64,000 nt of DNA from a phage, in NCBI GenBank assembly GCA_036252695.1, contig GCA_036252695.1_4122.1. One strand, given 5' to 3'. Position numbers and translations under genes: made by a program. Below are positions 6,460 through 33,586 of the stretch, piece after piece (positions within the stretch are counted from its first letter, which is position 1; every line of letters begins with the position of its first letter). The notes beneath the pieces were generated by a model. That model was not told the origin of the DNA. It worked only from the letters and a program-made list of their open reading frames with translations, and searched no databases.

Positions 6460-6723
6460 ATGAATATTCAAGATAGATTACAATTACTGTACACACTTGA
6501 ACAGGCTGCTTATGATCTTGTTCGAAAAATCTCAGATGAACTACCTAAAGGAACTAAAGTTCGTGTACGTGAGATGAATTATTTTTCTGGAGTAATTGAA
6601 GAACAAGTACTAACAGTGAATAAAGTAACATACTATGAATCTGAGTTGTCTATTCAGTGTGAATCTGATGATGGATTAATATCATATTATGGAACTGATG
6701 TAGATATAGAGGTAATAAAATGA
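6460..6723 (+). CDS. hypothetical protein, small paralog family
   Basis: Internal ATG at 6460 just after the upstream stop; LPKGTKVRVREMNYF motif like other small paralogs. Confidence 0.45.
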   Translation: MNIQDRLQLLYTLEQAAYDLVRKISDELPKGTKVRVREMNYFSGVIEEQVLTVNKVTYYESELSIQCESDDGLISYYGTDVDIEVIK

Positions 6724-7862
6724 CCCTTTTGCAAATATATGAAGATTTAATGCACTTATGTAATACAAACGATGCATTCTTTTATGTGGATCATAAAAGT
6801 CCTGCTGGTGGCACGTATCGTGTATTCAGTTATCGTCTAGCATCATACACTGATTTCATGCAACCAAATGCGTTGGAAACCCGTGGCTCTATGTGGGAAA
6901 TTGATGAAGAAGGTGAAATGATACGTTGTGCAGCACGTACAATGAAAAAGTTCTTCAATGCTTACGAGAATCCTGCTACAATGTTCCCTGCTAACACCAC
7001 ATGCGATGACATTGCGGTAGTGATGCCTAAGTTGGATGGTTCGATTATCAGTACTTACCGTGATAATGATGGTGAGATTCGTTGTAAATCACATACTGCA
7101 TTGTATTCTGACCATGCGATTAACAGTACTCGACTTATTAACGAGAACCAGAATTTGTATCAGTACATCGACGAAGCGGAACGTTTAGGTTACACAGTTA
7201 ATATGGAGTATACAAGCCCAGAGTACCGAATTGTATTACCATATCAGGTAGAACAACTGTTTGTACTGAACGTTCGTCATCGTGTGAGTGGTGAGTTGCT
7301 ATGTGGTAAAGCACTACGTGATAAGTTTCCATGTCTTGCACAGTACAGTACTAATATGACTGGAAAAGATATTCATCACACTTTTCCGGTACGAAATACC
7401 TTCCGTGAAAGCGTGGAGGAAGTTCATAAAATGCTTGATATTGAGGGTTTTGTGTGCATCCTAAATAATGGGACAATGTGTAAAATAAAGACTGACTGGT
7501 ACAGTTCATTACATCTTACAAAAGATAGTATTATTATTGATTCTCATTTATATGAAGCAGTATTAAATGGTTCAAGTGATGATTTAAAACAATTGTTCAG
7601 TACTGATGAATATGCTATGCAAAAGATATTAAGAATGGAACAATTGGTATTTTCGTGCTATAATGCATTACAAGATGAAGTAGAAAGCTTCGTCAAGGAA
7701 CACAAGCACTTGGAGCGAAAGGAATTCGCAATGAAGGTTCAGGAGTGTTTAACTAATGAACTGAATCGTCAGGGCTTGGCCTTTGCAATGTATAACAATA
7801 AGAAAGTTGATTACAAAGAGACTCTTATAAAATACATGAAAATTGTACTAAAGGATTTTTAG
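6720..7862 (+). CDS. rnlA: RNA ligase 1 (T4 gp63-like)
   Basis: 380-aa protein colinear with T4 Rnl1 as recalled: FFYVDHKS..GGTYRVFSY, ETRGSMWEI and the nucleotidyl-lysine motif MPKLDGS. Confidence 0.8.
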   Translation: MTLLQIYEDLMHLCNTNDAFFYVDHKSPAGGTYRVFSYRLASYTDFMQPNALETRGSMWEIDEEGEMIRCAARTMKKFFNAYENPATMFPANTTCDDIAVVMPKLDGSIISTYRDNDGEIRCKSHTALYSDHAINSTRLINENQNLYQYIDEAERLGYTVNMEYTSPEYRIVLPYQVEQLFVLNVRHRVSGELLCGKALRDKFPCLAQYSTNMTGKDIHHTFPVRNTFRESVEEVHKMLDIEGFVCILNNGTMCKIKTDWYSSLHLTKDSIIIDSHLYEAVLNGSSDDLKQLFSTDEYAMQKILRMEQLVFSCYNALQDEVESFVKEHKHLERKEFAMKVQECLTNELNRQGLAFAMYNNKKVDYKETLIKYMKIVLKDF

Positions 7863-7892: not shown

Positions 7893-8147
7893 ATGGCTAA
7901 ACCTAAGTATAAAAATGACGGTTCCCTTTCTCCGACTGAGTTCAGGAAAATACAAGAAGAAATCGATGAATTACAGCACAAACGCTCAATGAAAGGTGTG
8001 AAGATAAGTAAGAAACGAATCGAGAATACCTTCGGATGTAGTAGTACTGAATACAAGAAGAAAAGGAAACCAAAAGGTGTTAAGCCGAGAATACATGATG
8101 TAACTCGCTATACATCGAAACGTGAAAATAAATTTGACCCACTATAA
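7893..8147 (+). CDS. hypothetical basic protein
   Basis: ATG at 7893 after AAGGAG; Lys/Arg-rich 85-aa product. Confidence 0.5.
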   Translation: MAKPKYKNDGSLSPTEFRKIQEEIDELQHKRSMKGVKISKKRIENTFGCSSTEYKKKRKPKGVKPRIHDVTRYTSKRENKFDPL

Positions 8148-8156
8148 GGAGTTCAT

Positions 8157-8393
8157 ATGAAAGTTGAAGTTCAGCATAGTATTGTTCAGGATATGTCAGT
8201 AGTTAAATTTCTTTCCTTGAAAGATTATTTCAGATGTATCAAGTTCCTAGAAGAATCTCAATTACAGTGGACCCCATTAAAGTACAGTTCATCCAATGAT
8301 ACTGCTAGTATTCGTTGTGATGAATCTGTACTTGTGAAAATCTCCAAGCGATTTGGAGTTGGGAAATATAATGATAAACAATGCACAAAGTAA
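8157..8393 (+). CDS. hypothetical protein
   Basis: 78-aa ORF. Confidence 0.45.
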   Translation: MKVEVQHSIVQDMSVVKFLSLKDYFRCIKFLEESQLQWTPLKYSSSNDTASIRCDESVLVKISKRFGVGKYNDKQCTK

Positions 8394-8682
8394 TTTACTA
8401 TATATAAAGTCAGTAGAAGCTGAAATTAAAAATTCAGTACAAACTATCGTCGATGAAATGATTGACAAATACAAGAGCAATCTTATTGGGAAGAAAGTCA
8501 GATGTTGGGATTACACATTTAAACACTGGTACGATTCCGAGATTGTGAAAGTTGATGTGAATACTGATAGTAATGGTCTAATTAATGGTATTGCGTATAT
8601 TGGTGTTTTAATACGAAAGGGAACACCACAGGAATGGCTCACCTATCATAATATAGAGCATGTTAAATTTTTAGAGGATTAA
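8371..8682 (+). CDS. hypothetical protein, small paralog family
   Basis: ATG at 8371; LIGKKVRCWDY motif; overlaps the previous ORF, so one of the two starts is uncertain. Confidence 0.45.
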   Translation: MINNAQSNLLYIKSVEAEIKNSVQTIVDEMIDKYKSNLIGKKVRCWDYTFKHWYDSEIVKVDVNTDSNGLINGIAYIGVLIRKGTPQEWLTYHNIEHVKFLED

Positions 8683-8685
8683 AGG

Positions 8686-9618
8686 ATGCCAACTATCACA
8701 CTAACAGTTGGATTGCCTGGGTGTGGTAAAACTACATGGGCAGTGCAAGAGATTAAAAAAGCCAAATCCAAGACTATCAACATCAACCGTGATGATATTC
8801 GTGAATCTATGGCTGGGTCACATGATGCTTACAAATTCAACGATGCTAATGAGCAGTACGTAGATAATTTACAGTTCAGTGCAGCAAATTCAGCAGCAGA
8901 GAATGGTTGGAACATCATAGTATCCGATACAAACCTTAAACCACATTTCCGTAATCTCTGGAAAGTATGGGCTACAGATAATGGTTATGATTACAAAGAA
9001 AAGAACTTCTATGATGATTTTGTACCTAATGAAGACCGTGGTGCAGATGTTCATGAATTCTTTAAGATTAAAGAGTTCGTAAAACTTTGTAAGAAATATA
9101 ACCTCCAGCGTGAGCGTTCAGTACCAGATGATATCATTGACAAAATGGCAGATACGTACTATTATAGTAAAGCATTACACATTGGTTACTATGGTAATTC
9201 ACGCGAAGCTGCTATCATCGTTGATATCGATGGAACTCTTGCTCATAAATGGGGTCGTAATCCTTACGATGAAAGTACTGTTCTTCAGGATACACCTGAT
9301 GAAGAAGTTATTTTGTCTATTATCGCTGAAGCAGTTTTTCATAAACGCAAGATTATCGTCATGAGTGGGCGTACTGAAGGGTGTCGTGCGGATACCGAAC
9401 AGTGGCTTAAGAATTGGGGTGTTCCTTACGATGCATTGTTTATGCGAGATATCGATGATAAACGTCCTGATGATGTTGTAAAATTCGACCTGTACATGAA
9501 AAATGTGGTTGATCATTACGATGTTAAAAAGGTATATGATGACCGCGATCAAGTTGTATTCATGTGGCGTAAGCTACTTGGGTTGAAAGTTTTCCAAGTG
9601 GCTGAAGGAAATTTCTAA
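8686..9618 (+). CDS. pseT: polynucleotide 5'-kinase / 3'-phosphatase
   Basis: N-terminal Walker A (GLPGCGKTT) kinase module and C-terminal DxDGT (VDIDGTLA) HAD-type phosphatase module; colinear with T4 Pnk; GAGGA RBS. Confidence 0.85.
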   Translation: MPTITLTVGLPGCGKTTWAVQEIKKAKSKTININRDDIRESMAGSHDAYKFNDANEQYVDNLQFSAANSAAENGWNIIVSDTNLKPHFRNLWKVWATDNGYDYKEKNFYDDFVPNEDRGADVHEFFKIKEFVKLCKKYNLQRERSVPDDIIDKMADTYYYSKALHIGYYGNSREAAIIVDIDGTLAHKWGRNPYDESTVLQDTPDEEVILSIIAEAVFHKRKIIVMSGRTEGCRADTEQWLKNWGVPYDALFMRDIDDKRPDDVVKFDLYMKNVVDHYDVKKVYDDRDQVVFMWRKLLGLKVFQVAEGNF

Positions 9619-14069: not shown

Positions 14070-14297
14070 ATGAAAGTAATTCAAGTTATGGTAGAAAAAT
14101 ACCAAACTGAAGATGGTCGTATTTTTGATTCAGCTAAACAAGCTGAACACCATGAACGTATTATTTCTGGTGCACGTAAAGTATGTCCTACATGTAATGG
14201 AACACAACAAGTACCGTCAGAAGATTACCGCAGCTTTTATGCTTGTCCACACTGTGATGGGAAAGGCTACGTAGAAAAACAAGAGGTATGGAAATGA
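14070..14297 (+). CDS. small zinc-ribbon protein
   Basis: 75 aa with CPTC ... CPHC cysteine pairs. Confidence 0.45.
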   Translation: MKVIQVMVEKYQTEDGRIFDSAKQAEHHERIISGARKVCPTCNGTQQVPSEDYRSFYACPHCDGKGYVEKQEVWK

Positions 14298-14707
14298 AAT
14301 TGTATTGCTTAACTAATATGTACTGCCAAGGTGTCCAAGCTGGTATTCAAGCATTCCATGCTGGTGTTAAACTAATTAAAGAATATGAAGGTACTGCTTT
14401 CAGTACTATTATTGATGAATGGTACTATGAACACGAAACTATTGTAGTACTAAATGCTGGTGGACATGATAAGTTAAATTCTTATTATAACAACCTTAGC
14501 AAACAGGGAAAAGTTCCGTTTGCCAAATTCAATGAAGCTGGATTGAATGATGCTATTACCTGTGTAGCAGTACTGTGTACGTCTGAAATGATTGAAGACA
14601 TGGCTGTTATGCGTATGAATCTTCCTGCTGGTGATCAACTAATGCAAGTAAAATATGGTGCATTGTTTGACACATTAAAAGCAATCAGTACAATGAGGAC
14701 TATTTGA
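14288..14707 (+). CDS. hypothetical protein
   Basis: 139-aa ORF with stop-start overlap. Confidence 0.5.
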   Translation: MEMKLYCLTNMYCQGVQAGIQAFHAGVKLIKEYEGTAFSTIIDEWYYEHETIVVLNAGGHDKLNSYYNNLSKQGKVPFAKFNEAGLNDAITCVAVLCTSEMIEDMAVMRMNLPAGDQLMQVKYGALFDTLKAISTMRTI

Positions 14708-21171: not shown

Positions 21172-21667
21172 TACTAATATCTGGTTAGATAACATAATCA
21201 AGACATTAGAATTAATTAAACTTACATTACAAAAAACTACTGATATTGAAATTAATATTAAACAAGAAATATTAAACTATTATCATAGAAACAAATATAG
21301 CACGTTTATCTCTAAATTAATTTATGGATTATATGATATTGAAGATATTTGCATCGGTTACAGTACTGGTATTTGCTTCACAGTTAATGGTTTAAAAAAT
21401 GATTTAAATTTCAGACTTTCCGATGAAGAGCAAGATTTTCGTAGATTTTGTGATAATATTATGGATACAGATAAAATTACATTTGTTATTGAATTAAATC
21501 AAACGTGGTCTACATATGCAGATAAACCATTTGAAATTAATGAAACAGATGTGTTAAACTATATTCGAGTTATGAAAATTCATGATTTGTGTAAAAACGC
21601 ATTGTTAAGTATTGGAGCTTATAATGAAACATACGACTTGGTTGAAGATAGCAGAAGTAGTTGCTGA
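21143..21667 (+). CDS. hypothetical protein
   Basis: 174-aa ORF. Confidence 0.5.
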   Translation: MKYTHLSIDDTNIWLDNIIKTLELIKLTLQKTTDIEINIKQEILNYYHRNKYSTFISKLIYGLYDIEDICIGYSTGICFTVNGLKNDLNFRLSDEEQDFRRFCDNIMDTDKITFVIELNQTWSTYADKPFEINETDVLNYIRVMKIHDLCKNALLSIGAYNETYDLVEDSRSSC

Positions 21668-22103
21668 GGAAAGTAAATGTATTTCACAAAAAGTTGGTTG
21701 TGTTATTGTTAAAAATAACCGAGTATTGAGTACTGGATACAATGGTACTCCATCAAAACAACCAAATTGTTGTGATGTGAATCAACACTTAGTCAATGAT
21801 GGACGTTTTCAAGACTGGGTTAGTGATGAAGCAAAGCATGAACATCATGAGTGGAGTAATATTCATGAAATCCATGCTGAAATGAACGCTTTACTCTATA
21901 GTTCTCCTACTGAACGTCAAGGTGCTACTCTTTACACAACACTACAACCATGTTATACTTGTTCTAAGTTGATCGCAGGTAGTGGGATTTCACGTGTAAT
22001 TTATCTCAAAAATTATCCTCGTACACCACCAGAAGCTATTAAAGTACTGGAAGATGCTGGAATTATTGTTAATTGCATTTATGATAAGGGTCTTGATAAA
22101 TGA
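21624..22103 (+). CDS. cd: dCMP deaminase
   Basis: HAEMNA and PCYTCSK zinc-binding deaminase motifs; N-terminal ESKC; ATG at 21624 after GGAG. Confidence 0.8.
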   Translation: MKHTTWLKIAEVVAEESKCISQKVGCVIVKNNRVLSTGYNGTPSKQPNCCDVNQHLVNDGRFQDWVSDEAKHEHHEWSNIHEIHAEMNALLYSSPTERQGATLYTTLQPCYTCSKLIAGSGISRVIYLKNYPRTPPEAIKVLEDAGIIVNCIYDKGLDK

Positions 22104-23667: not shown

Positions 23668-23928
23668 ATGACAAACATCCAAAACTTGACATCTATTATT
23701 TTTTATGCTACTGTAGTAATGTATGCTACAGTTATTTTTCTAACAGTTTTCATTTACAAAGATTATCGTAATGGCTTTATTGATCCAACTACAATGAAGT
23801 TCAATTCAAAATTCGAAGCAATAATTTATTATGTACTATCAACTTCATACTTGGTGTGCCTAATGTTGTTAGGAGCACTAATTTATATCTTATACACAAC
23901 ATTATTTGCAATTGGAGCTATTTTATGA
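23668..23928 (+). CDS. small membrane protein
   Basis: 86 aa with several hydrophobic helices. Confidence 0.5.
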   Translation: MTNIQNLTSIIFYATVVMYATVIFLTVFIYKDYRNGFIDPTTMKFNSKFEAIIYYVLSTSYLVCLMLLGALIYILYTTLFAIGAIL

Positions 23929-24545: not shown

Positions 24546-24746
24546 ATGATGGCATACACAATTTATGAATGGGTTTTGAGTTTTTTTATAGTTTTTTCTA
24601 TTGTTGTAATTTATAACAATGCTAAATGCTTATATAGGGACTTGAAATCCAATGGTTATCACAAAGATAATAATTTTATGTATGCCTATCATATTGGAAT
24701 CATTCTGTTATTATCAATATATTTAATTGTTTTTTATAAGGATTGA
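24546..24746 (+). CDS. small membrane protein
   Basis: 66 aa with two hydrophobic helices. Confidence 0.45.
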   Translation: MMAYTIYEWVLSFFIVFSIVVIYNNAKCLYRDLKSNGYHKDNNFMYAYHIGIILLLSIYLIVFYKD

Positions 24747-24748
24747 AT

Positions 24749-25501
24749 ATGATATCAGAAAAATTTATAAGCAATGAAGGTAAAAAGCGATTACTGATTA
24801 TATCAGGTGCAGGACTTTCTGTTGAAAGTGGTATGGAACCTTTTCGATTTGATGATGGTTTGTGGGATACATTTAAAATTAATGATGTATGTAACATTGC
24901 TAGTTTAACTACAAAATATCATGTTGTTCATTCTTTCTATAATACATTACGTGTAAAATTGGGACAATGCGAACCAAATGCAATGCATTATTTTATAAAA
25001 TCGTTAGAAGATCAATATGGTGATTGCTTCCTTCATATGACTTCTAACATGGACGATCTTTATACTCGTATTGGTGGTCATGAGCTTAAACTTCATGGAA
25101 ACTTGTGTGAAGTTATTGAAAATTATAGTATCAATTCTGATGATTATAATGTTATTAACTGCGGATACGAACCATACATACCAAAACATGATGTTTTTGC
25201 TAAACCAAATGTAGTAATGATTGGAGAATATCATCGTTATGTTGATGGTATACGCTTACCAATTTACGAAGAACGAAATAATGTGTTGAAATCTCTTAAT
25301 GAAAATGATACAGTTATTGTAATTGGTAGTAGCGATACAGTACTGGTATGGTCGAGATTAGCAGCAGCATTACCATGTTATAGTGTTAATGTTAACATTC
25401 GTAAAAATGATAATGATTTTTTGTTTAATGAAAAAGTTATCAAGCCAGCAACCAAAGCAATACCACATCTAGAGACTATAATTAAGGAACGTATGAAATG
25501 A
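24749..25501 (+). CDS. Sir2-family NAD-dependent deacylase (CobB-type sirtuin)
   Basis: ISGAGLSVESGMEPFRFDDGLW NAD-binding motif; PNAMH..HMTSNMDDL (TQNID-like) and catalytic LHG colinear with E. coli CobB as recalled; ATG at 24749 after AAGGA. Confidence 0.75.
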   Translation: MISEKFISNEGKKRLLIISGAGLSVESGMEPFRFDDGLWDTFKINDVCNIASLTTKYHVVHSFYNTLRVKLGQCEPNAMHYFIKSLEDQYGDCFLHMTSNMDDLYTRIGGHELKLHGNLCEVIENYSINSDDYNVINCGYEPYIPKHDVFAKPNVVMIGEYHRYVDGIRLPIYEERNNVLKSLNENDTVIVIGSSDTVLVWSRLAAALPCYSVNVNIRKNDNDFLFNEKVIKPATKAIPHLETIIKERMK

Positions 25502-26049
25502 GTGTTAAAGAAGTTCCCTTTGGTGAATATGGCTCACGTGCAAATTTTGTATTTTGTTATTTCTTTGCAAGAAAATGTAACCCTTACAAAAACTATGAGT
25601 TGAATGATATACCAGAAGTAAATTTAGTTTTACTACAATTACGATGGGATGGTCTTCTTGGTGGATGTGGTGGAACCGTAGAAAGTACTGATATCTCACT
25701 AGAAGATGCGTTGCGTCGTGAAGTTCAAGAAGAAATGGATTACAATATTTTTGTTTCCCATCTTCGACCACTCAAAACTTTTGAAATTTACCCAGGTGCA
25801 AACAGTCACAGTTTTAGCTATGAAGTAACCTATGACGAGTTGAAACACATTAGAGATGGATACACTAATGCTAAACATGCAAGTGCAGAAGTTGCTGGTG
25901 TAAATTTATGTCATATTTCTCGTTATTCTAAGGGACAAAATCGAGAAGCGGGATATAATAATCTTATGACACAGAACTTCATCGGTACAGCAAGACAAGA
26001 ATTGGAGTATCTGGTTCAAAAAGAAAACTTACTAATTAGTTATCTATAG
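25498..26049 (+). CDS. Nudix-like hydrolase
   Basis: Nudix-box-like GGTVEST..LRREVQEEMDY segment (spacing slightly non-canonical); ATGA overlap with the sirtuin gene. Confidence 0.5.
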   Translation: MSVKEVPFGEYGSRANFVFCYFFARKCNPYKNYELNDIPEVNLVLLQLRWDGLLGGCGGTVESTDISLEDALRREVQEEMDYNIFVSHLRPLKTFEIYPGANSHSFSYEVTYDELKHIRDGYTNAKHASAEVAGVNLCHISRYSKGQNREAGYNNLMTQNFIGTARQELEYLVQKENLLISYL

Positions 26050-26058
26050 GAGTTTAAC

Positions 26059-26379
26059 ATGTCTTACGCAATGTTTTTGGATGATATTCGTGATGCAAAT
26101 CTATATTATCCAAACCAAGATATGGTGGTATGTCGTGACTTTAAAAGTGCATGTGAATATGTTATTGAAAATGGAATTCCAGCATTTGTATCATTCGACC
26201 ATGACTTGGGTGATGTGAGCGAAGACGAAAAGACTGGATATTCTTTTGCTAAGTTTCTTATTGATTATATGTTTGATAATAATATTAAAGAACCGTTTGA
26301 GTACTTTGTTCACAGTAGTAATCCTGTTGGTAAAATTAATATTGAAACATACTTAAACAATGGATTTAACGCATTATGA
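26059..26379 (+). CDS. hypothetical protein, possibly receiver-like fold
   Basis: 106 aa with LDDIRD, VSFDHDLG and VHSSNPVG in the order of receiver-domain acidic pocket / Asp / Ser-Thr positions; weak inference. Confidence 0.45.
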   Translation: MSYAMFLDDIRDANLYYPNQDMVVCRDFKSACEYVIENGIPAFVSFDHDLGDVSEDEKTGYSFAKFLIDYMFDNNIKEPFEYFVHSSNPVGKINIETYLNNGFNAL

Positions 26380-26678
26380 TTCAAACACACATCAAAAGTC
26401 TTATTTGTACTGTTCTGTTAGGTGCAGGAGTTCTTTGGTTCGGACAGTATCACGAGAACACTAAGCGTACCAACATTCACTACAATACCGCAGAAGTTGT
26501 TAGTTTAGGACAATGTAGCGAGTCCAAATGTTCATTCATGTATAAAACCCAAAGTGGTGAAGTACGTAATGGACTATCAAGAGAACCAGTTTCAATTGGT
26601 CAACTTGTTTACCAGGAGTGCTGGGAAGAAAAGGTTCGAGGTTCACGTTGCTATGTTGAATACGAACCAAATATGTAA
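26376..26678 (+). CDS. membrane-anchored hypothetical protein
   Basis: 100 aa with an N-terminal hydrophobic helix; stop-start overlap. Confidence 0.5.
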   Translation: MIQTHIKSLICTVLLGAGVLWFGQYHENTKRTNIHYNTAEVVSLGQCSESKCSFMYKTQSGEVRNGLSREPVSIGQLVYQECWEEKVRGSRCYVEYEPNM

Positions 26679-26738: not shown

Positions 26739-28178
26739 ATGAAAAAATATACAATTGACACAAATGTACTACTATCTGACCCTAATGCATCTATTGCTTT
26801 TGATGGTGCTGCAATCATTCTACCATTTACAGTACTGGAAGAATTGGATTCAATTAAGAGTCGTAATGTAGATGTTTCACGCGATGCTCGTGTTGCTATT
26901 CGTAACATTGAAGCAATTATTGCAGATGCATCACATGATGAGATTAGTAGTACTGGTGTTAATATTGCTGATGTTCATACCAATATGAATCCTGATAGCA
27001 AATTGTTTGTTATTACAAACGAAGAAGCTGAAGCACTAATTCGTACTAAAGGTTCAGAAGAGAAAGTTCAAACCCTTCTCAAAAGCACAGTACCTGATGA
27101 TAAAATCATTCTGGTAGCTTTAGCAACAGAATCAGTACTGGTAACTCGTGATATCAACATGCGTATCAAAGCACTAAGTTATGGTGTCGAGGTACAAGAT
27201 TATCGCCATGATATTGTTATTGGTGATAGTGATTTGATTCACATTGGTCAACACCATTTGGAAATTAATTTTTGGGAAGTATATAGCAACTTAACCAATA
27301 CTAATATTCAATCCGAACAAGTTGGTCGTCGTTTGTATCATTACATTTCTAAAAGCTTGATTGAACATTTGCTTCCACAAAATCTATGCATCGGTGATTA
27401 TCTATATGATGATGCTGACGTATTATTTGTGTACGAAGGACAATCAGCAATTGAGGAAGATGATGGAACACTAACACCAGAAGATATTTTGGTATTCCAA
27501 GACATTGGACAATCAGTGGCTTTACGTGCTAAAGTATGGGATATTAAAGCAAAGAATATCCAACAAGCACTCGCCATCAACAGTATTCTCGATCCTGATG
27601 TACATCTAACAGTACTGCTAGGTTCTGCTGGTACTGGTAAAACACTAATTACAATTGCTACTGCATTAGAATTAGTACTGGAAAAACGTAAATACGACCG
27701 AATCATCTTCTCTAAAACTCAAGACTCACAGTTTGAAGATATTGGTTTCTTGCCAGGTTCAGAAGCAGAAAAAGTGATTCCATTCTGTGGAGCCGCGATT
27801 GATGCGTTAGAGTTTCTTCATAAAGATGATGCCAACCCACAAGGTAGTATTGAAGAGATTATGAAACGTAATGTTATTCAATTTAAAGCACTAAACTTTG
27901 TACGTGGACGTTCATTCACCAACACTATTCTAGTAGTTGATGAATTCCAAAACATTACACCTGCACAAGCAAAAACCATCTTGACACGAGCAGGGTTAAA
28001 CTGTAAAGTAGTAATTATGGGTAACTTGAGTCAGATTGACAGTAAGTTTATTAGTCCTGTTAACAGTGGTTTGACATATGTAACTGAGAAGTTTAAAGAC
28101 TGGGCAGGTTGTCGTGTCATCGAACTAGAAGGTGTTGTTCGTTCACCACTGGCTGAATTTGCTGAAGAAAATATGTAA
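26739..28178 (+). CDS. phoH: PIN-PhoH (PhoH2-like) ATPase
   Basis: N-terminal PIN-like region (YTIDTNVLL) fused to a PhoH-type NTPase with Walker A GSAGTGKT and DEFQN Walker B. Confidence 0.75.
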   Translation: MKKYTIDTNVLLSDPNASIAFDGAAIILPFTVLEELDSIKSRNVDVSRDARVAIRNIEAIIADASHDEISSTGVNIADVHTNMNPDSKLFVITNEEAEALIRTKGSEEKVQTLLKSTVPDDKIILVALATESVLVTRDINMRIKALSYGVEVQDYRHDIVIGDSDLIHIGQHHLEINFWEVYSNLTNTNIQSEQVGRRLYHYISKSLIEHLLPQNLCIGDYLYDDADVLFVYEGQSAIEEDDGTLTPEDILVFQDIGQSVALRAKVWDIKAKNIQQALAINSILDPDVHLTVLLGSAGTGKTLITIATALELVLEKRKYDRIIFSKTQDSQFEDIGFLPGSEAEKVIPFCGAAIDALEFLHKDDANPQGSIEEIMKRNVIQFKALNFVRGRSFTNTILVVDEFQNITPAQAKTILTRAGLNCKVVIMGNLSQIDSKFISPVNSGLTYVTEKFKDWAGCRVIELEGVVRSPLAEFAEENM

Positions 28179-28435: not shown

Positions 28436-28539
28436 TTCATTTGAAGCAATATTGTGGAGTTCTTAATAAATACTTTTATAAGAATAATAATACTTTTTAT
28501 TAAATTAAAAAGAACTCCATGTGTTATTTCAGTTTTTCG

Positions 28540-28566
28540 TCCCTGTCTTTTGGCAGGGATTTTTTA
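28540..28566 (+). terminator. rho-independent terminator
   Basis: tccctg-loop-caggga hairpin followed by a T-run; a separate 10-bp inverted repeat (tggagttctt / aagaactcca) lies upstream. Confidence 0.5.
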
Positions 28567-30443: not shown

Positions 30444-31415
30444 ATGAAAACTAAAATTATTTCTGAACAAAAAATTGGCAATACTACAGTACTGAATCTT
30501 GAAGTTCAAGGTCTTAGTAATGTTCGTTCTCTTACGGTTTGTACTCAGAGAGATGATTTGACTGATTTCTATAGCTCAGAATACATGTCAGAAGAACCTT
30601 GGGATATGGGATGGTTGGACGGTAGTAGTTATATCAGTTCACGTTATAGTTTTGGTTCTCATGAAAATATTGAACAATTAAAAAATGAGTATATTAAACT
30701 CAGTGATACTATTGAAATGAAAGAAGAAGATTGTGTAGAACTTTTCATTTTTGAATTCGATGCCGGAAATGGTAATTCATTACTAGTAAGTAATATTGAA
30801 GAACATTTAATGTATCATGAAATTGAAGATGTAGATTTTGAAAGTATTAAAAATGTTGTTCATATGGTTGGTGGTAGTATTACTGATGATTCAGATATCG
30901 GTCATAATATTTCACTGTGCTTAATTTCTCATCCAAAAACTCGTGGTTTTAAAGTTCCACAAGATGAAACTTACGTGTCTGAAACTGCTGATGAAGGAAT
31001 TTATCCTTGGAATGATTATGTAGAATACTATGGTCATTTCTGTTCTGATACAAAAGAACTGAAAAAAGGCGAACAATATTTTGATATGTTCCGTGCTGCA
31101 CAGCGTTTAGTACTGAATAATACTGAACTATTTCCTGATCGCGGCGAAGAAAATATGATTGATATTATCTTCAAGAACTATGATTATGTACAGAACATTC
31201 CTGATAATGTACATTTGGAATATGTTCACGGTTCTTCAAACAAATTCTATAATATTGAATTGAATGCTCCAGTGTGTGAAGTAATTATTGAGTACGGTGC
31301 TATTGGTAAAACCAGTACTACAGATGGTGAAGAATTCGAAACTATTGAAGAAGCACGTAAGTTCTTCGAGAAGAAAGTAATTTCTAAAATTAAAAGTGGT
31401 TATAGCCCAAAATGA
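30444..31415 (+). CDS. WGR-domain protein
   Basis: C-terminal ~80 aa (SSNKFYNIEL..YGAIGKT...EEARKFFEKK...GY) matches the WGR pattern; N-terminal 240 aa unassigned. Confidence 0.55.
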   Translation: MKTKIISEQKIGNTTVLNLEVQGLSNVRSLTVCTQRDDLTDFYSSEYMSEEPWDMGWLDGSSYISSRYSFGSHENIEQLKNEYIKLSDTIEMKEEDCVELFIFEFDAGNGNSLLVSNIEEHLMYHEIEDVDFESIKNVVHMVGGSITDDSDIGHNISLCLISHPKTRGFKVPQDETYVSETADEGIYPWNDYVEYYGHFCSDTKELKKGEQYFDMFRAAQRLVLNNTELFPDRGEENMIDIIFKNYDYVQNIPDNVHLEYVHGSSNKFYNIELNAPVCEVIIEYGAIGKTSTTDGEEFETIEEARKFFEKKVISKIKSGYSPK

Positions 31416-32606: not shown

Positions 32607-33221
32607 ATGACTACATCGGAAAAGTACTGGTGGATTTTGGGTCATCCTAAATTCATAAACAAAGATATGGTTCCAGCTAGGATTGATATTGAACCTCATG
32701 ATGTGTGTCCAATGACAAATCGAATTGAAGATTTCAAAGCATTGAATACAAAGACTCAATTTTGGGTAGAATTTCTTTCACCAATGTATATTGAGCAAGA
32801 CGACGAATGGGTACAAGCACATGATTATCAATTGGATTGTGGTGGTGATACGTATGAAGAGGCCATTGATGAATTATACAAAAATGTTCTGAACACATAT
32901 GGGGATTATACCCAACAGGAAGCAGATGATAAATTTCATAAAATACATTCATTCAATGCATCACAATCAATATATAATCCCGCTAAAACAGTTTGGGAGG
33001 AACGACACAGTTGGAGTTCATGTGTAATCGATGAAGAAACCAAAGAAAAAATCATCGATGACATAAAAAATTTAAAAAATACAATCCAAGCCTTGCGTGC
33101 ATTCATAAAGTCTTGTACAATAGGAGAACAGCAAGAGGCAAAGATACATTTGGAGAGTGAAGAATGTAAACTTTGGGTTCTAGAAAAATCACTTGAAAAG
33201 GGTATAGACTTAGACTTATGA
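32607..33221 (+). CDS. hypothetical protein
   Basis: ATG at 32607 after GGAG (track ORF opens at TTG 32595). Confidence 0.5.
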   Translation: MTTSEKYWWILGHPKFINKDMVPARIDIEPHDVCPMTNRIEDFKALNTKTQFWVEFLSPMYIEQDDEWVQAHDYQLDCGGDTYEEAIDELYKNVLNTYGDYTQQEADDKFHKIHSFNASQSIYNPAKTVWEERHSWSSCVIDEETKEKIIDDIKNLKNTIQALRAFIKSCTIGEQQEAKIHLESEECKLWVLEKSLEKGIDLDL

Positions 33222-33586
33222 ATAGTAAATTGGAGAAACTTGTTGAAGAATTACGCCGGATGCCACCTATTGAGCAAGTAGGGAACTACAAGCGGTATCG
33301 TGTGATTGCTCGTGCACTGGATAAAAAAGGTCGAGTACTGGCAACTCGCACAAATTCTTATACACAGACTCACCCAGTACAGAAGGGTTTCGCCATTCGT
33401 GCTGGGCGACCGCAAGGTGAGTTTCTTCATGCTGAAATTTCATGTTTACTGGCTGCTCGTGCTGATGTTCATACTTTACTGATTGCACGGATAAGTAAAG
33501 ATGGAATTCCTGTACCTGCCAAACCATGTGAAATTTGCACATTAGCAATTATGGAATACGGGGTTAAGGAAATTATCCACACATGA
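33218..33586 (+). CDS. small CDA-fold deaminase-like protein
   Basis: HAEISCLLAA and PCEICTLA zinc-binding motifs (H-A-E ... P-C-x-x-C) in a 122-aa protein, distinct from cd. Confidence 0.5.
   Translation: MNSKLEKLVEELRRMPPIEQVGNYKRYRVIARALDKKGRVLATRTNSYTQTHPVQKGFAIRAGRPQGEFLHAEISCLLAARADVHTLLIARISKDGIPVPAKPCEICTLAIMEYGVKEIIHT

Follow-up and report, generated by a model that had tools for sequence, protein, structure and literature searches.

The stretch of phage DNA analysed here, a window of 64,000 nucleotides (nt) to which all feature coordinates refer, was examined in the region 24749-26379, where a sirtuin gene is followed by genes for a Nudix hydrolase and a small protein of the cREC family. 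A conserved cassette of five genes has these three at its core. Our preferred reading, to which we assign a probability of roughly 40%, is that the cassette is a module for nucleic-acid (RNA) end processing dependent on nicotinamide adenine dinucleotide (NAD), used for repairing or reshaping RNA that is cut during infection. It is built on domain identities, intact catalytic motifs, translational coupling, synteny and a fusion of Nudix with cREC, all observed directly, and from these every substrate and every reaction step of the cassette is inferred. The arrangement is a re-discovery: GenBank records carry annotations for it, and an interpretation has been published. Among Asteriusvirus jumbo coliphages, the 3-kb cassette region shares 99.1-99.5% identity with phAPEC6, G17, Sharanji and PBECO4, besides others, and 95.7% with 121Q; "Sir2-like protein" and "nudix hydrolase" are existing annotations of the first two genes in several Asteriusvirus GenBank records. 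A preliminary description of this DNA, made from the sequence alone, knew of no described phage system of this kind. That was incorrect, because a jumbo-phage neighbourhood of sirtuin, 2H, Nudix, cREC and PIN genes had been described and given a predicted function in section 3.7.3 of Iyer, Burroughs, Anantharaman & Aravind (Viruses 2022, PMC9503650).

Six open reading frames (ORFs) stand in a row on the same strand in the ORF map, from a small hydrophobic ORF to a PIN-PhoH gene:

24546-24746, + strand: small hydrophobic ORF of 66 amino acids, Asteriusvirus only
24749-25501, + strand: sirtuin of a phage-specific clade (PF02146, phrog_2162, CobB match in the PDB, AlphaFold/Foldseek)
25498-26049, + strand: Nudt16-like Nudix hydrolase (PF22327, PF00293, phrog_9999, NUDT16/X29 in the PDB)
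26059-26379, + strand: cREC protein of 106 amino acids, predicted phosphoesterase (PF20274)
26376-26678, + strand: protein of 100 amino acids with a hydrophobic N-terminal segment and four cysteines (phrog_14661 "membrane protein")
26739-28178, + strand: PIN and PhoH protein of 479 amino acids, predicted RNA nuclease/helicase (PF13638, PF02562)

The coordinates previously given for the three core genes were exact. Read from the DNA, the TGA of the 66-amino-acid ORF sits 2 nt ahead of the sirtuin ATG (24749), and the sirtuin stop and the Nudix start share an ATGA at 25498-25501, which confirms the overlap and the translational coupling proposed for this pair. The Nudix gene is separated from cREC by a spacer of 9 nt with an AGGAG inside, the cREC stop shares a second ATGA (26376-26379) with the start of the 100-amino-acid gene, and a spacer of 60 nt lies ahead of the PIN-PhoH gene. 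Each start is preceded by a Shine-Dalgarno-like AAGGA or AGGAG. The count of promoter-like sites (55) did not exceed that in shuffled sequence (45 +/- 7), and terminator-like sites (6) exceeded theirs only weakly (2.6 +/- 1.7); operon boundaries are therefore not established, and the only terminator-like hairpins bracketing the cassette region are found at 23710-23732 and 28539-28560. Transfer RNA (tRNA) genes had been considered as local repair substrates, and none was detected by ARAGORN in the 64-kb window.

The product of 24749-25501 belongs to the sirtuin superfamily, as had been proposed, with 73.1 bits against Pfam SIR2 PF02146 (cut-off 24) and E = 2e-77 against phrog_2162. The GAGLSVESGMEPFR motif, N100/D102/D103 and the catalytic pair H116-G117 are all present. 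In an alignment of 17 clade members with 34-100% identity, G20, G22, S27, G28, N100, D102, D103, H116 and G117 are invariant, so the NAD-binding motif GAGxS..FR and the catalytic His claimed for the window protein were both found intact; the FR of the motif is kept here and lost in two of the 17. Two clade members that are 62-64% identical to the window protein, P0011 and P0013, have GNG in place of GAG and have lost FR (GNGLCLESGFNPYH, GNGLSMDSGFDLYD) while retaining the catalytic His, and these sirtuins may be inactive or altered in cofactor use. In a metagenomic jumbo-phage contig (L009) two overlapping ORFs, 7992-8240 and 8237-8752, take the place of a single sirtuin gene, owing to either a frameshift or a sequencing error.

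The closest sequence match in the PDB is E. coli CobB (E about 1e-22), followed by Sir2Af and SIRT5. An AlphaFold model (predicted local distance difference test, pLDDT, 80.7; predicted template modelling score, pTM, 0.84) has CobB as its top Foldseek match with a template modelling (TM) score of 0.74-0.82, and the best 50 PDB matches are all sirtuins. CobB-like by best sequence and fold match, the protein nevertheless scores far below the CobB equivalogs NF001755 (93 bits, cut-off 318) and NF040867 (85 bits, cut-off 320). With CobB and other class III sirtuins it has in common the GAGxSxxSG motif, FR, the N-x-D pocket, HG and the FYN tyrosine; it differs in an identity of about 27% to CobB, in the absence of the zinc cysteines, in an altered TQNID and in motifs of its own. 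Indeed, the 17-member alignment contains no conserved Cys pairs that could form the canonical four-cysteine zinc site, and many members have one or two Cys in total; the AlphaFold model retains the small beta-rich domain. Across the whole clade TQNID carries Ser, Thr or Ala at the Gln position (T-S/T/A-N-x-DD), and NDVCNI, GYEPYIP and W201 are invariant and specific to the clade. The protein thus appears to be an active, CobB-derived, yet distinct phage sirtuin, a "distinct clade" status already noted by Iyer et al. (PMC9503650) in their treatment of the jumbo-phage neighbourhood.

Two other types of sirtuin were considered and rejected. A defence-type SIR2 NADase (ThsA, DSR1/2, SIR2-HerA, SIR2-pAgo) does not fit a standalone protein of 250 amino acids whose top structural matches are deacylases, and no PADLOC defence model was matched by the sirtuin at E <= 0.01. 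In SirTM-type ADP-ribosyltransferases QG replaces the catalytic HG, the zinc domain is kept and a macrodomain is adjacent or fused (Rack et al. 2015, PMC4518038). The phage locus resembles those systems in that a sirtuin suspected of ADP-ribosyl transfer has an ADP-ribose-processing partner; it differs in its invariant HG, in the loss of the zinc site and in the adjoining gene, which encodes a Nudix protein, the only macro domain of the window being 37 kb off. Isoelectric points (pI), tried as a test for RNA binding, were 4.5-5.9 for the sirtuin clade, 4.2 for cREC and 5.4 for Nudix against a window ORF median of 5.8. They were uninformative, since the phage's own RNA enzymes Rnl1, Pnkp and CCA-adding enzyme also have a pI of about 5.5.

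The second core protein was likewise correctly recognized as a Nudix hydrolase: it scores 68.8 bits against Nudt16-like PF22327 (cut-off 27), 30.2 bits against NUDIX PF00293 and 8e-90 against phrog_9999. In the PDB it is closest to human NUDT16 and Xenopus X29, with E about 1e-12 and an alignment over residues 38-179. The Nudix box GGTVEstdiSLEDALRREVQEEMDY is intact, and GG-x-VE...SLE-x-A-x-RE-x2-EE is kept in 16/16 jumbo-phage orthologues; PADLOC gave a marginal match only (15.6 bits, E 0.0023). The third protein had been described as possibly receiver-like. The receiver-like domain is real, since the protein has the receiver (CheY-like) fold of the cREC family and scores 80.3 bits against cREC_REC PF20274 (cut-off 27), but it is not a signalling receiver, the family being predicted to consist of phosphoesterases. 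D8, D9, R11, D47, H48, D49, S86 and N88 are invariant in 40 diverse homologues and all present here, and this set of residues resembles the active site of an enzyme. The cREC domain was named and defined in a 2021 survey of jumbo phages (PMC7824862), and its action on cyclic phosphates is a prediction made there and in section 3.7.3 of PMC9503650. Neither a sequence relative of cREC in the PDB nor a PADLOC match to it was found. A profile search covering 1.84 billion representatives matched 7,785 clusters at 50% identity, nearly all of them standalone proteins of 110-190 amino acids. Fusion partners were looked for as a clue to function, and the ten longer matches were without a second Pfam domain. 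One bacterial cREC gene lies 13 nt after a calcineurin-like phosphoesterase gene; two other bacterial or metagenomic cREC genes were on phage-like contigs with no informative neighbours.

The remaining two genes of the cassette are less alike in what can be said of them. The protein of 100 amino acids, translationally coupled to cREC, matches phrog_14661 "membrane protein" at 3.9e-44 and no Pfam family; it has the cysteine pattern GQCSESKC...YQECW...RCYVEY, and its gene lies between cREC and PIN-PhoH in 15/15 jumbo loci extending that far. The PIN-PhoH protein, which contains PIN_4 PF13638 (72 bits) and PhoH PF02562 (150 bits), both in excess of the curated Pfam cut-offs, has the PhoH2-type architecture, with PhoH2 as its best NCBIfam match (152 bits vs a cut-off of 680). 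Its gene closes the conserved cassette and is found downstream in every complete jumbo locus. Its orthologue gp341c is reported in the virion proteome of phAPEC6 with 8 peptides and 30.9% coverage, in a paper whose text contains neither "Sir2" nor "nudix", and PhoH was also observed in RaK2 virions according to the CBB paper. The predicted RNA nuclease/helicase may therefore be injected together with the phage DNA.

Scanning IMG/VR with a pattern from the sirtuin alignment gave 30 loci, of which 16 came from RaK2-group jumbo phages of 345-378 kb, among them 121Q, RaK2, GAP32, CBB, BF and Yen9-04. The order sirtuin, Nudix, cREC, 100-amino-acid membrane protein and PIN-PhoH is the same in 16/16 jumbo loci (one of which ends right after the sirtuin), in at least five genera and down to 43% sirtuin identity; because of this the arrangement is not a matter of chance, and the gene order is conserved far beyond it. 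The flanking genes for HslV, a Clp-like protease, 2H and NAMPT vary between the loci while the order of the cassette stays. In nine jumbo loci (L010-L017, L019) Nudix and cREC are one polypeptide of 300 amino acids, so both act on one pathway. The earlier suggestion that Nudix clears ADP-ribose products derived from the sirtuin is reasonable, and is reinforced by these fusions in sister phages. The same sirtuin clade was found outside the jumbo phages. In the rV5-like locus L025 the order is Metallophos, T4-type RNA ligase, cREC, P-loop kinase, sirtuin and DNA ligase, and in the T5-like locus L023 the sirtuin is followed by a HAD "Swiss-army-knife" RNA-repair phosphatase (HAD-SAK) with PhoH nearby. 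The jumbo, rV5-like and T5-like loci found here independently reproduce the three published neighbourhood types of PMC9503650. A separate observation concerns the Salmonella Munch/7t3-like subgroup (L005:8750-9121, also L007, L008 and L009), where an acidic ORF of 123 amino acids with no Pfam match lies between sirtuin and Nudix and interrupts the ATGA coupling seen in the window.

In section 3.7.3 of PMC9503650 the sirtuin is predicted to remove an RNA 2'-phosphate in the NAD-dependent manner of KptA, and 2H, cREC and Nudix to process a cyclic phosphate or the ADP-ribose cyclic-phosphate by-product. Following this proposal, the sirtuin would bind NAD+, move ADP-ribose onto an anionic acceptor and free nicotinamide; the acceptor would be the RNA 2'-phosphate remaining once a 2',3'-cyclic phosphate has been opened. 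The sirtuin would thereby correspond in function to KptA/Tpt1 and yield ADP-ribose 1'',2''-cyclic phosphate. The cREC protein, as a receiver-fold phosphoesterase, would open the cyclic phosphate on the RNA end or on the ADP-ribose by-product, Nudix would cleave the ADP-ribose pyrophosphate into adenosine monophosphate (AMP) and ribose phosphate, and PIN-PhoH would act as the RNA-handling nuclease/helicase. A more far-reaching version is that this is the first sirtuin with a nucleic-acid phosphate and not acyl-lysine as acceptor, a non-homologous replacement of Tpt1/KptA, that cREC is a new receiver-fold cyclic phosphodiesterase, and that cREC and Nudix turn the by-product into AMP and ribose bisphosphate. 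This version, suggested by the loss of the zinc site, by ADP-ribose-processing enzymes always coming after the sirtuin and by its recurrence beside RNA ligase, kinase and phosphatase genes, we regard as tentative and, as a whole, doubtful.

Other genes for RNA and ADP-ribose metabolism are found elsewhere in the window:

6720-7862, + strand: T4 Rnl1-type RNA ligase (PF09511 58.7 bits, PF20819 62.4 bits), 17 kb upstream of the cassette
8686-9618, + strand: T4-type polynucleotide kinase-phosphatase, Pnkp (PF25109 HAD_PNKP 149.7 bits, AAA_33 50.8 bits)
14288-14707: homologue of PTH2-type peptidyl-tRNA hydrolase (PF01981 25.2 bits)
60813-61925: CCA-adding enzyme
62033-62434, + strand: second Nudix, MutT/NudE-like (PF00293 48.5 bits; phrog_1185)
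63264-63740, + strand: macro-domain protein of the Poa1 / SCO6735 / DarG-macro type (PDB matches)

The PTH2, Rnl1, Pnkp and CCA-adding enzymes suggest a broad kit for upkeep of the translation apparatus, and the same genome arm also encodes two calcineurin-like phosphoesterases and a DNA ligase. With 16.4 bits the macro protein falls short of the Pfam Macro threshold of 22, and PDB matches to 2fg1 (1e-15), SCO6735 5e3b (1.6e-11) and yeast Poa1, the ADP-ribose-1''-phosphate phosphatase (6lfu, 2.7e-6), bear out the macro domain reported at 63264; the match to the DarG macro profile of PADLOC is weak (39.4 bits). Judged from these likenesses, it could clear an RNA-repair by-product, as Poa1, or reverse DarT-type ADP-ribosylation of DNA, as DarG. 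The second Nudix placed by the preliminary description at 62002 is also real, with its start at 62033. Both genes had been combined with the sirtuin and its neighbours into a full writer/eraser set for ADP-ribose chemistry, a claim we do not uphold, since they lie 36-37 kb from the cassette and any link to it is putative. Among further ORFs of the window is one at 30444-31415 for a protein of 323 amino acids with a C-terminal WGR domain (PF05406, 41.9 bits). WGR is the domain by which PARPs sense breaks in nucleic acids; in this protein the N-terminal 255 amino acids match no Pfam family, and a catalytic PARP domain was not detected. Two ORFs belong to the cytidine/dCMP deaminase family, 21612-22103 and 33218-33586, the second being short (122 amino acids, PF00383 29.4 bits).

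The neighbourhood of the cassette is richer in the sister phages. A 2H gene, coding for 148 amino acids, stands directly upstream of the sirtuin in 14/16 jumbo loci (e.g., L005:7537-7983 and L010:7311-7757). Its product falls into the Pfam Acb1 family PF23474 (57.9 bits, cut-off 27), matches the solved protein Acb1 (PDB 9q2g, E = 1.6e-6), which acts against the cyclic oligonucleotide-based antiphage signalling system (CBASS), and retains both H-x-T/S motifs; its labels in GenBank/RefSeq vary between "RNA ligase", "structural protein" and "hypothetical". In 15/16 jumbo loci a gene of the NAMPT family is situated 1-5 kb upstream of the cassette (e.g., L010:5530-7008 and L006:5942-7414); on the more far-reaching version given above, the products of cREC and Nudix could there feed a closed NAD-recycling loop. 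In the CBB genome paper NMNAT is reported to adjoin NAMPT, and NMNAT is reported in CBB and GAP32; the pairing resembles NARP2. Four rV5-like loci (L025-L027 and L033) have a Nampt/Namat-family homologue on the opposite strand within about 8 kb of the sirtuin, which may be the Namat of NARP1, the Adps and Namat operon of rV5-like phage Bas63 whose counter-defence activity has been demonstrated experimentally. No Acb1-like 2H gene was found in the window or in L004, and no NAMPT in the 64-kb window. The 66-amino-acid ORF, without a PHROG match and with a homologue only in L004/121Q among the loci compared, occupies the position of the Acb1-like gene of the sister phages. By tblastn with 2H, the 60 records listed of 190 phage records carrying a homologue included no Asteriusvirus and EJP2 as the sole Escherichia jumbo phage; with NAMPT, the 60 matches listed were also without Asteriusvirus. 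In both lists every other genus of the RaK2 group was represented. The window phage is thus a reduced variant of the sister-phage neighbourhood, without the Acb1-like gene or NAMPT. Acb1 and NAMPT are mentioned nowhere in the text of Iyer et al. (PMC9503650), and the Acb1-family identity of 2H and the proximity of NAMPT are additions to the published description.

Taken together, processing of RNA ends is favoured by catalytic motifs that are intact in all three enzymes and conserved across the clade, by the tight coupling through two ATGA overlaps and one 9-nt gap, and by the synteny of 16 loci with the Nudix-cREC fusion. It is favoured as well by the place of the sirtuin clade beside enzymes of RNA end healing and sealing in rV5-like and T5-like lineages, by the bacterial cREC gene 13 nt behind a calcineurin-like phosphoesterase, by a genome arm with Rnl1, Pnkp, PTH2, a CCA-adding enzyme and a Poa1-like macro domain, and by the published contextual prediction (PMC9503650, section 3.7.3; PMC7824862). 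A number of points weigh against it. The nearest relatives of the sirtuin by both sequence and fold, CobB and SIRT5, are protein deacylases. We know of no sirtuin that acts on RNA, and to our knowledge PIN nucleases make no cyclic-phosphate ends. The phage already encodes a T4-type Pnkp and Rnl1 pathway, which leaves no 2'-phosphate, and therefore the need for a Tpt1-like step is unclear. The 2H partner of the published neighbourhood is not at the window locus, and in sister phages it belongs to the anti-CBASS family Acb1 and is not a clear RNA cyclic phosphodiesterase. Finally, the literature search returned no experiment on the phage sirtuin clade, cREC or the cassette, only the comparative genomics of PMC9503650 and PMC7824862.

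The relationship to deacylases leads to an explanation which we consider rather unlikely, namely that the sirtuin is a CobB-like protein deacylase that strips acetyl or succinyl from proteins of the host or the phage, and that the O-acyl-ADP-ribose or ADP-ribose formed as by-product is destroyed by Nudix. It corresponds to the clean-up part of the idea in the preliminary description. E. coli CobB, Sir2Af and SIRT5 are the best matches in sequence and structure, the catalytic His, the Asn/Asp of the nicotinamide pocket and the Tyr of FYN (Y64) are invariant, and R68 lies one helical position off CobB R95. NUDT16-type Nudix enzymes are known to hydrolyse ADP-ribose derivatives. However, the scores of 85-93 bits are far from the equivalog cut-offs of 318-320, the clade has lost the cysteines of the zinc ribbon, on which the peptide-binding small domain is built, and the TQNID Gln is changed to S, T or A in the whole clade. 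Deacylation would also leave cREC without a role, and it would account neither for the Nudix-cREC fusion nor for the repeated occurrence of the sirtuin near genes for RNA ligase, kinase and HAD-SAK. We do not follow the preliminary description in its suggestion of host-protein modification, as the comparative context (RNA ligase, kinase and cREC; HAD-SAK; PIN-PhoH neighbours) favours RNA-end processing.

Nor do we think it likely that the cassette is, as the preliminary description mainly speculated, a counter-defence module directed at host immune systems based on NAD depletion or on signals derived from ADP-ribose or nucleotides, with Nudix and cREC destroying cyclic ADP-ribose isomers or ADP-ribose phosphates and the sirtuin making or remodelling an ADP-ribose derivative or ADP-ribosylating a defence protein. 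The upstream Acb1-family and NAMPT genes of the jumbo loci point in this direction, as do the pairing of NAMPT with NMNAT in CBB-type phages, which resembles NARP2, and the Nampt/Namat homologue near the sirtuin in four rV5-like loci, given the anti-defence activity of NARP1 in Bas63. Iyer et al. (PMC9503650) make the case that soluble ADP-ribose derivatives are the main targets of the Nudix, macro and cREC domains of phages. On the other hand, an NAD-consuming phage enzyme runs contrary to surviving NAD depletion, the window phage keeps the cassette without Acb1 and NAMPT, the sirtuin matches no defence-type SIR2 model, and the neighbourhood may be a mere island of accessory genes. We also know of no immune signal that is a demonstrated substrate of cREC or Nudt16. 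RNA repair in phages is itself counter-defence, so this explanation overlaps with processing of RNA ends. It is quite improbable, in our view, that the genes are mere neighbours without a shared pathway, i.e., independent auxiliary enzymes co-transcribed in a gene-dense arm. Early and middle regions of phage genomes are dense and same-stranded, ATGA overlaps are common there, and the promoter- and terminator-like counts given above would agree with such a state. Against this stand the order kept in 16/16 loci across genera while HslV, Clp-like protease, 2H and NAMPT vary, the Nudix-cREC fusion in nine loci, and the recurrence of the sirtuin-cREC neighbourhood in unrelated rV5-like phages.

Compared with known systems, the locus is closest to configuration 1 of Iyer et al. 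2022 (PMC9503650, section 3.7.3), with Serratia phage BF as prototype. The sirtuin of BF (L010) is of the same clade and 44% identical, and in both phages a Nudt16-like Nudix, cREC and a PIN-containing protein come after it. Nudix and cREC are separate genes in the window phage and fused in BF; the window locus is without the linked 2H of that configuration, NAMPT is also not in the window, and the 100-amino-acid membrane protein is not mentioned in the neighbourhood description of that section. The chemistry proposed for the cassette is the same as in the pathway of KptA/Tpt1, 2H cyclic phosphodiesterase (Cpd1) and Poa1, comprising ADP-ribosyl transfer, nicotinamide release, opening of the cyclic phosphate, dephosphorylation and pyrophosphate cleavage. 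The phage has a candidate analogue for each step, including the Poa1-like macro domain encoded 37 kb off. KptA/Tpt1 has the ADP-ribosyltransferase fold and the phage protein the Rossmann fold of sirtuins, so this is analogy and not homology. In phage T4, tRNA repair by Pnkp and Rnl1 counters the anticodon nuclease PrrC. It is likewise a case of RNA end healing and sealing by a phage as counter-defence, both T4-type enzymes are encoded in the window, and in rV5-like phages the sirtuin and cREC genes are embedded between RNA ligase and kinase genes. The T4 pathway, however, needs no NAD and leaves no 2'-phosphate, and the cassette would be an addition to it, not a version of it.

The cassette is practical to test, since it is carried by coliphages that plate on laboratory E. 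coli, e.g., Sharanji on MG1655. Should the published prediction hold, the phosphate ends of RNA would become a new class of sirtuin substrates, receiver domains would have a catalytic offshoot in cREC (about 7,800 clusters at 50% identity), and phage RNA repair and counter-defence would acquire an NAD-dependent branch.

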